Below are positions 27,348 to 28,874 of a stretch of 36,185 bases of DNA, piece by piece. The DNA lies in contig CALBUH010000070.1 of the NCBI GenBank assembly GCA_937968075.1, forward strand, positions 1 through 36,185, written 5' to 3'. The notes beneath the pieces are model-generated. The model searched no databases, was not told the DNA's origin, and was given only the letters and a program-made list of their open reading frames with translations. The stretch comes from an uncultured Bacteroidia bacterium (lineage in GTDB: Bacteria; Bacteroidota; Bacteroidia; J057; CALLMJ01). Made by a program: the position numbers and the translations under genes. The stretch's first letter is position 1; every line of letters begins with the position of its first letter.

Positions 27348-28874
27348 CTAGTATTTTGTTACAAATCTACTTTCTCTCGCTTTGGTAATCCCCGTATCAA
27401 TATACTCTATAATCTTGTGATTGAGCTTCTCATATATATCTTCCTCAATTTTTAATATTTTTCTAAACTCACGAAAAAGTAAATTAATCTCATCTATATT
27501 GTCTGGGTAAATTTCCTTTTTAGCTTTTTTTAGTTTTTTGATGATTGTTGTATGGGAAAAAGAATCCAATCCATGCGCAGCGATAGATTTATTCCGTAAA
27601 ATTTTCAAATCTTTTACGTAATTTTTAAAATTCATTTTTTGTTTGAACTCAGGGGAATTCTCTAATTCTTTATCATGTTCAATAAAATAATTCAGCAAAT
27701 TTTCTGTAAGATAAGTAGTAGGATTATCCTCTAAATACCTTATTTCTTTTTTTTCTAAATAAAGTTTTAAATCTTCTTTATCAATTCTTTGATTTTCCTT
27801 GTCATTTAAATATTTTTCAAATTCTTGCTTCCAATCGTTTTGTTCAGGATAATTTATTCCAGTAATGTTGATAACTTCTTGTAATTGTAACATTTCTATA
27901 AATCGGAAGATTCTCAAAAGGAAATCATCATAATCACCTTGTTGAAACTTTATGAAACAACTGTAATACAATTGTCTCATCGTAAATTTTTCTTTGTCCA
28001 AATCTTTAACATCATTAATGAGTAGTTCAATAAAGCTATCCTCGGATTTTGGGAAATGTTTTTGGTTATTTTCTAATGTTTGAATGGCTTTTTCAGGTTG
28101 AAAAATCAATCGGTTGTGGGCGTATTCTGCGAGCGTTCGGATTTTAATATCAATCGAGTGGAGTTCCAGTATAGCGGCATAGTTATATTTTTCAACAAAC
28201 CTACGAGCAAATTTATATTCTAAAACCGTATAAAAACGTGTTTTTATATCTATTTTAAAACTTTGTTTTCTTTTTTCATCTACCATTACCTCCACCAAAG
28301 ACTTATCTTGGGAATATAGATGTAGTACTACAAAACGAACGGCGTTATTGATAGCGTCTATACCACCAACTAAATGTAAGTATAAATTTTCACTTTCAAA
28401 AATTTTTTCTTTAAAAGGAGAAGTGGATAGTTTTTCTAACATGAAATCATACATATCATGCAGACTTATTACGTTTTCATGGACAGGTAAATGATAGACC
28501 TTAACATTTGGATACTTTTTTATGAGAAATTTTTCTAATACCATTCCAAAATAAACGGTATCTTGATTGTGTTTTTCGTATTGGTCTGTTGCTACCAAAA
28601 CCACATTATCCAATGTAATTCCTTCCTGCTCAACCATTTTAAGAGTAGGTGTAACAATTGGGAAGTCAATGTAATCTAGAAAAAAACTAAAATAACGATA
28701 AAGAAATTCTCCCAATACTCTTGCAGGAATATTATAAATAGATTTATTACTATTAGTTTCCTTTTTTAGTTGAGTATATTCCTCTAGGATTTGCGGAGGA
28801 ATATTGGTATGAGTAAAATCTTCTGTTTTTAATTGTATGTCTCGGGTTCCAAGTGTTATAATTAATGTATTCAT
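27348..28874 (-). CDS. csm6: Csm6/Csx1-like ancillary effector candidate, with an N-terminal CARF-like domain and a C-terminal HEPN-like R-X6-H motif.
   Basis: The N-terminus MNTLIITLGTRDIQL fits the CARF strand-1 plus Gly/polar-loop pattern of the kind seen in Csm6, and LHLVGGIDAINN is a possible CARF GG loop. The C-terminus LRNKSIAAHG gives R427-X6-H434 (nt ~27573-27596), consistent with the HEPN Rx4-6H motif. The gene is last in the csm operon. Confidence 0.5.
   Translation of the reverse strand: MNTLIITLGTRDIQLKTEDFTHTNIPPQILEEYTQLKKETNSNKSIYNIPARVLGEFLYRYFSFFLDYIDFPIVTPTLKMVEQEGITLDNVVLVATDQYEKHNQDTVYFGMVLEKFLIKKYPNVKVYHLPVHENVISLHDMYDFMLEKLSTSPFKEKIFESENLYLHLVGGIDAINNAVRFVVLHLYSQDKSLVEVMVDEKRKQSFKIDIKTRFYTVLEYKFARRFVEKYNYAAILELHSIDIKIRTLAEYAHNRLIFQPEKAIQTLENNQKHFPKSEDSFIELLINDVKDLDKEKFTMRQLYYSCFIKFQQGDYDDFLLRIFRFIEMLQLQEVINITGINYPEQNDWKQEFEKYLNDKENQRIDKEDLKLYLEKKEIRYLEDNPTTYLTENLLNYFIEHDKELENSPEFKQKMNFKNYVKDLKILRNKSIAAHGLDSFSHTTIIKKLKKAKKEIYPDNIDEINLLFREFRKILKIEEDIYEKLNHKIIEYIDTGITKARESRFVTKY

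Follow-up and report, generated by a model that had tools for sequence, protein, structure and literature searches.

The last gene of a type III-A CRISPR operon in an uncultured Bacteroidia bacterium (assembly GCA_937968075.1, contig CALBUH010000070.1, positions 1 to 36,185; this whole stretch of 36,185 nucleotides is referred to as the window) very probably encodes a Csm6/Csx1-type effector with CARF, linker and HEPN domains, predicted from its sequence, its modelled structure and analogy with characterized enzymes to be a ribonuclease activated by cyclic oligoadenylate (cOA). The csm6/csx1-like gene (27348..28874, minus strand) comprises 508 codons between an ATG start and a TAG stop; the plus-strand frame at the same position is riddled with stops. 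Its product is an expected part of the operon, not a new kind of effector, and belongs to a mostly Bacteroidota branch of Csm6/Csx1 with no sequence-detectable member among the solved structures. All testable defining features of the broad family are present: an N-terminal Rossmann-like CARF fold, ligand loops after β1 (TxGxRD) and β4 (GGIDAIN), a C-terminal HEPN domain with an R-X4-6-H motif, and a type III system whose Cas10 has a cyclase motif (GGDD at residue 557). The initial annotation, based on short motifs, had proposed a CARF/HEPN effector encoded by the terminal csm gene; the gene indeed lies on the minus strand directly after csm5, and the interpretation is supported by the evidence below.

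The predicted domains divide the protein into three parts. The CARF domain (about residues 1-208; 28251..28874, minus strand) begins with the sequence MNTLIITLGTRD (residues 1-12), in which the initial annotation had recognized a CARF-like strand and loop. The β1 loop T-L-G-T-R-D (residues 7-12; 28839..28856) has Thr7, Gly9 and Arg11 invariant in a set of 33 homologs. The GG-containing loop that had also been pointed out, LHLVGGIDAINN, is found at residues 166-177 and corresponds to the β4 loop HLVGGIDAINN (residues 167-177; 28344..28376). Between β1 and β2, the domain contains a stretch of about 75 residues forming four helices (residues ~13-88). A helical linker domain (residues ~209-292; 27999..28250, minus strand) takes the place occupied by a 6H or HTH domain in Csm6 proteins (PMC10702470, PMC10897365). 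The HEPN ribonuclease domain (residues ~293-500; 27375..27998, minus strand) carries the putative catalytic R-N-x5-H motif (Arg427, Asn428, and His434; 27573..27596) within RNKSIAAHG (residues 427-435). The long helical middle region, earlier regarded as being of unknown function, corresponds to the linker domain and the first HEPN helices.

Conservation was scored over 165 near-full-length sequences. Arg427, His434 and Gly171 are present in 100% of them, followed by Asp105 (99%), Gln98 (98%), Gly9 and Asn428 (96% each), Thr96 and Pro72 (95% each), Arg52 (94%), Gly170 (93%), Asp12 and Asn176 (92% each), and Arg11 (87%). The spacing of the RN..H motif varies in the same set: R-x6-H occurs in 120 sequences, R-x4-H in 37 and R-x5-H in two, while six do not match. 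The initial annotation described a single R-X6-H near the C-terminus; the motif and its numbering are right, but it is not the sole occurrence, as Arg180-His185 and Arg246-His253 also fit the R-x(4-6)-H pattern. The two additional pairs were dropped as catalytic candidates because they are not conserved in homologs, and Arg427/His434 is the only conserved pair as well as the only one inside the HEPN profile match.

Profile searches place the protein in the same family. The strongest PADLOC profile, Csx1 PDLC01509, matches nearly the full length (residues 54-488, E-value 4.5e-42), the Csx1/Csm6 CARF+HEPN profile matches residues 1-490 (1.2e-32), and several CARF1--CARF_HEPN models match as well. 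The Csm6 HEPN domain of Pfam (PF09670) is found at residues 299-442 and is matched by 31 of the 33 homologs. When 1.84 billion representative sequences were searched exhaustively with phmmer, 341 proteins reached E ≤ 1e-3, 155 of them E ≤ 1e-10. A word-indexed search retrieves a copy that is 99% identical and has the same neighbouring genes (L001, a metagenome contig), a homolog of 69% identity in an operon of the same type at another genomic position (L002), and otherwise matches of 24-36% identity. The protein had been called larger than many Csm6 proteins, but within its own family it is only modestly long: 164 collected homologs of 400-560 residues range from 401 to 529 (median 473), and seven have at least 505. 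Insertions specific to the protein do not exceed 8 residues, besides a 12-residue C-terminal tail; the size therefore hides no extra domain.

The predicted structure agrees with the profiles. A confident AlphaFold2 model computed from 33 sequences (mean predicted local distance difference test score, pLDDT, 90.5; predicted template modelling score 0.82) divides the chain into an alpha/beta domain at residues 1-207, a linker of five helices at ~209-290 and a helical bundle extending to about residue 500. The initial annotation called for a comparison of the fold with Csm6 and Csx1, and in a whole-chain Foldseek search against the PDB the 22 best matches are all Csm6/Csx1 chains (E-values of 4e-8 for EiCsm6, 1e-7 for StCsm6', 7e-7 for TtCsm6, 5e-5 for SisCsx1 and 5.5e-5 for Csx1-Crn2).

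Several observations weigh against this assignment. The PF09670 score (29 bits) is just 2 bits over the cut-off of 27, and no NCBIfam model matches the protein; the sole NCBIfam match, a methane monooxygenase model (E-value 0.007), falls far under its own cut-off. Sequence searches of the PDB give only noise, whether run with the protein alone or with profiles of 33 and 150 sequences, so the link to characterized enzymes is drawn through curated profiles and the predicted fold. Whole-chain template modelling (TM) scores to solved Csm6 structures are moderate (0.4-0.6), which may reflect a different domain orientation. Finally, hints about the ligand conflict: the CARF domain alone is nearest to cyclic tetra-adenylate (cA4) ring nucleases and Can2, whereas the C-terminal half is nearest to Csm6 proteins of the cyclic hexa-adenylate (cA6) type.

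By analogy with characterized enzymes (PMC7101355, PMC10702470, PMC10897365, PMC11229360), the Csm complex with its CRISPR RNA would bind a matching invader transcript, upon which Cas10 would make cOA. The protein would act as a homodimer whose two CARF domains together form the binding pocket for the messenger, the linker domains would relay the conformational change to the paired HEPN domains, and Arg427 and His434 would then cleave single-stranded RNA non-specifically, slowing both host and invader. An HEPN domain, found in many toxin and defence contexts, could also belong to a cOA-independent toxin or abortive-infection ribonuclease that only happens to lie next to the csm operon. The probability of this is practically negligible given the complete CARF domain, in which the ligand-loop residues are conserved, the start of the gene 12 nt past the csm5 stop with no independent terminator in the gap, and the operon adjacency kept in distant loci. 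A scan for related loci, restricted to one genome per species, gave 14, mostly from Bacteroidota (Bacteroidia, Saprospiraceae, Spirosoma, Parafilimonas, and Neolewinella), the others from Clostridium sp. cel8, Neomarinimicrobiota and Cloacimonadota. In the 11 with enough flanking sequence the homolog adjoins the csm operon, in 10 after csm5 and in one (L008) before cas6.

The CARF domain modelled alone (pLDDT 93.7) matches a wide range of folds, i.e., Crn1-type ring nucleases, Cad1, Csm6-2, Can2, Cam1, Csa3, EiCsm6, and TtCsm6, and it most resembles Sis0811, Sso2081 and Sis0455, all ring nucleases of the Crn1 type. Together with the lack of a separate ring nuclease gene in the window annotation, these matches would suit a protein that mainly switches signalling off as a ring nuclease or regulator, its HEPN ribonuclease activity being secondary or absent. 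Such a role is extremely unlikely: conservation of the HEPN Arg, Asn and His residues in 96-100% of the 165 homologs indicates selection for ribonuclease catalysis, and the 508-residue protein is the only cOA-responsive effector candidate at the locus. Moreover, characterized Csm6 enzymes join both activities (PMC7101355, PMC10897365), so ring nuclease activity would refine a cOA-activated ribonuclease and not replace it. As the nearest CARF folds include ring nucleases, the CARF domain may, speculatively, also turn the signal off by breaking down the messenger.

With regard to the ring size of the messenger, there is a slight lean towards cA6 over cA4. In the strict sense, Csm6 denotes cA6-activated CARF-6H-HEPN proteins (PMC11229360, PMC10702470), and Csx1 denotes cA4-activated CARF-HEPN proteins (PMC11229360). 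The lean follows from the whole-chain Foldseek ranking and from how closely the C-terminal half matches Csm6 proteins of the cA6 type; the extra CARF helices, likewise present in those proteins, point the same way. Counted towards cA4 are the CARF-only matches, the Csx1 label of the strongest PADLOC model and the general prevalence of cA4 (PMC11229360). Since most solved CARF domains bind cA4, the CARF and PADLOC pointers to it are weak. The CARF-only model does not itself assign a ligand class, matching cA4, cyclic penta-adenylate (cA5)/cA6 and mixed binders at similar scores.

A CARF-HEPN ribonuclease could also respond to something besides cA4 and cA6 as its messenger, for example cA5, cyclic tri-adenylate or a non-adenylate compound, if the four-helix stretch with its near-invariant Arg52 (94%) and Pro72 (95%) shapes a different pocket. 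The CARF-only search is consistent with this in that it groups the domain with no single ligand class, at TM-scores of just 0.4-0.57, and includes a Csm6-2 structure with cA5 (9w3w); a cA5-selective Csm6-2 is reported elsewhere (PMC13187428). It seems very unlikely nonetheless, as the canonical GGDD motif of Cas10 gives no pointer to an unusual product. A related idea, also very unlikely, is that the clade, with its 341 representative clusters, either senses such a messenger or gates its pocket differently through the four-helix stretch and its two near-invariant residues; in a system whose Cas10 lacks the HD motif, no other non-specific immune output would then exist beside the protein.

The genes of the operon all lie on the minus strand. 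Upstream of the csm6/csx1-like gene are csm5 (28887..30008; TIGR01899, 8.7e-26), csm4 (29989..31044; TIGR01903, 1.3e-54), csm3 for the Cas7 backbone subunit (31025..31762; TIGR02582, 7.2e-61), csm2 (31778..32200; PF03750, 3e-24), cas10/csm1 (32216..34486; TIGR02578, 3.6e-144) and cas6 of the Cas6b type (34488..35183; PF17262, 4.3e-28 and PF17955, 1.6e-14). Cas10 keeps its cyclase motif, while its HD motif is degenerate: no HD dipeptide occurs in the first 150 residues, the sequence ISHIEG aligns to LLHDIGK in relatives (L006, L015), and about 70-100 residues are missing from the N-terminal HD region. In view of this substitution and the missing residues, the DNase arm of Cas10 has probably been lost. 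Cas10 of L002, the locus with the 69% identical homolog, likewise retains GGDD, lacks the HD dipeptide and has a short N-terminal region, and a canonical HD is also absent from several other relatives (L003, L007, L008 and L011). Given the degenerate HD motif, the csm6/csx1-like ribonuclease is probably the main non-specific output of the system, alongside cutting of the target RNA by Csm3.

On the 3' side of the csm6/csx1-like stop codon, a hairpin followed by a U-run (27275..27327, minus strand) is a probable terminator of the operon. The fold of 27268-27347 on the minus strand has a free energy of -20.3 kcal/mol (z = -4.3), and none of 200 shuffled sequences is as stable. A simple consensus scan for promoters and terminators returned fewer sites than shuffled sequence and passed over the hairpin, since the loop exceeds 8 nt. 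An Rfam search over 25000-36185 found nothing. On the other side of the operon, an AT-rich stretch of about 540 bp upstream of cas6 separates it from a CRISPR array (35724..36156, no strand assigned) whose 36-nt repeat, GGTGTATATACCATCTAATTAATAGGAGTTCACAAC, occurs seven times without variation, with spacers of 30-31 nt; the array extends to the window end. The 99% identical contig (L001) has one repeat only (3117-3152) where the window has seven, probably an assembly collapse and otherwise real variation in array length. Guanine-cytosine content is 0.29-0.35 in the csm region and 0.31-0.40 elsewhere in the window; the composition profile gives no clear signature of a compositional island.

The window contains neither cas1 nor cas2. 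Downstream of the csm6/csx1-like gene (25943-27174, minus strand) is a gene for a XerC/D-like tyrosine recombinase with the ribosome hibernation factor HPF. In the related loci L006 and L011, the genes that come after the homolog are a RecD-like helicase gene, cas1, a PrimPol-like gene and cas2, and in L004 and L015 cas1 comes directly after it. A Bacteroidia metagenome-assembled genome (L014) has two tandem CARF+HEPN genes past csm5 (5227-6723 and 6725-8077), the second of which matches the PADLOC Csx1/Csm6 profile (1.2e-28) and no Pfam family. A WYL-WCX regulator adjoins this pair, and a WYL-WCX gene also lies beside the homolog in L005. None of these neighbours (RecD-like helicase, cas1, PrimPol, cas2, WYL regulators, and the L014 paralog) has a known ligand.

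The remainder of the window holds Bacteroidota-type housekeeping genes, including those for proteins sorted by type IX secretion. The reading frames at 1-1758 and 2425-5394 (plus strand) encode large secreted proteins that combine Ig-like/PKD repeats with CHU_C signals for type IX secretion; the first runs past the window start and contains a 246-nt tandem repeat at 4-464. An 819-residue open reading frame (9371-11830, minus strand) with MVP_shoulder (7.5e-28), Vault_3 and Band_7/SPFH domains resembles major vault protein. At 13973-14222 (plus strand), a tandem pair of identical tRNA-Lys(ttt) genes (100% identity, 88-nt period) directly precedes tRNA-Leu(gag). A 413-residue open reading frame (15992-17233, minus strand) contains Peptidase_S74, an endosialidase chaperone domain that typically occurs in phage tail fibres or autotransporter-like proteins.

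Beyond annotation the importance of the assignment is small: what was a guess from motifs is now well supported. The assignment does reveal a Csm6/Csx1 branch of considerable size, mostly from Bacteroidota, without a sequence-detectable solved member. The compact locus with an HD-degenerate Cas10 could be a clean model for purely cOA-driven immunity, and, with its activator identified, a new Csm6 ortholog could serve in RNA diagnostics coupled to cOA.

Among known systems, the CARF fold is common to the protein and the stand-alone Crn1-type ring nucleases (Sis0811, Sso2081), which lack a fused nuclease, whereas the protein carries a conserved HEPN domain. Can2/Card1 (PDB ID: 8Q3Y and 6WXW) have a PD-(D/E)xK nuclease as effector domain where the protein has HEPN, and their matches span 123-138 residues of the CARF domain only. 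The CARF-HEPN architecture is shared with the cA4-activated Csx1 from Sulfolobus islandicus (PDB ID: 6QZT) and Csx1-Crn2 from Marinitoga (PDB ID: 8Y7G), but the structural match is weaker (E-values of about 5e-5, TM-scores of 0.33-0.38); SisCsx1 forms a hexamer, and its CARF domain lacks ring nuclease activity (PMC10897365), and Csx1-Crn2 bears an extra Crn2 domain that is absent here. Csm6 from Streptococcus mutans (PDB ID: 4RGP) and Staphylococcus epidermidis (PDB ID: 5YJC) are 11-15% identical to the protein, and their deposited chains of only 247-255 residues are uninformative on the CARF domain. Enterococcus italicus Csm6 (PDB ID: 6TUG) and Streptococcus thermophilus Csm6' (PDB ID: 8PE3 and 8PCW) are cA6-activated CARF-6H-HEPN ribonucleases; at 13-16% identity they fall below sequence detection, the protein is about 100 residues longer (508 vs. 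386-430), and it differs in its R-N-x5-H motif. The Thermus thermophilus Csm6 TTHB152 (PDB ID: 5FSH, 8JBB, 8JBC, and 8JH1), a cA4-activated CARF-HTH-HEPN ribonuclease with ring nuclease activity, is similar in length (~460 residues) as well as in fold. Its Arg415, Asn416 and His422 form the same R-N-x5-H motif as Arg427, Asn428 and His434, and mutation of these residues abolishes its ribonuclease activity (PMC10897365).
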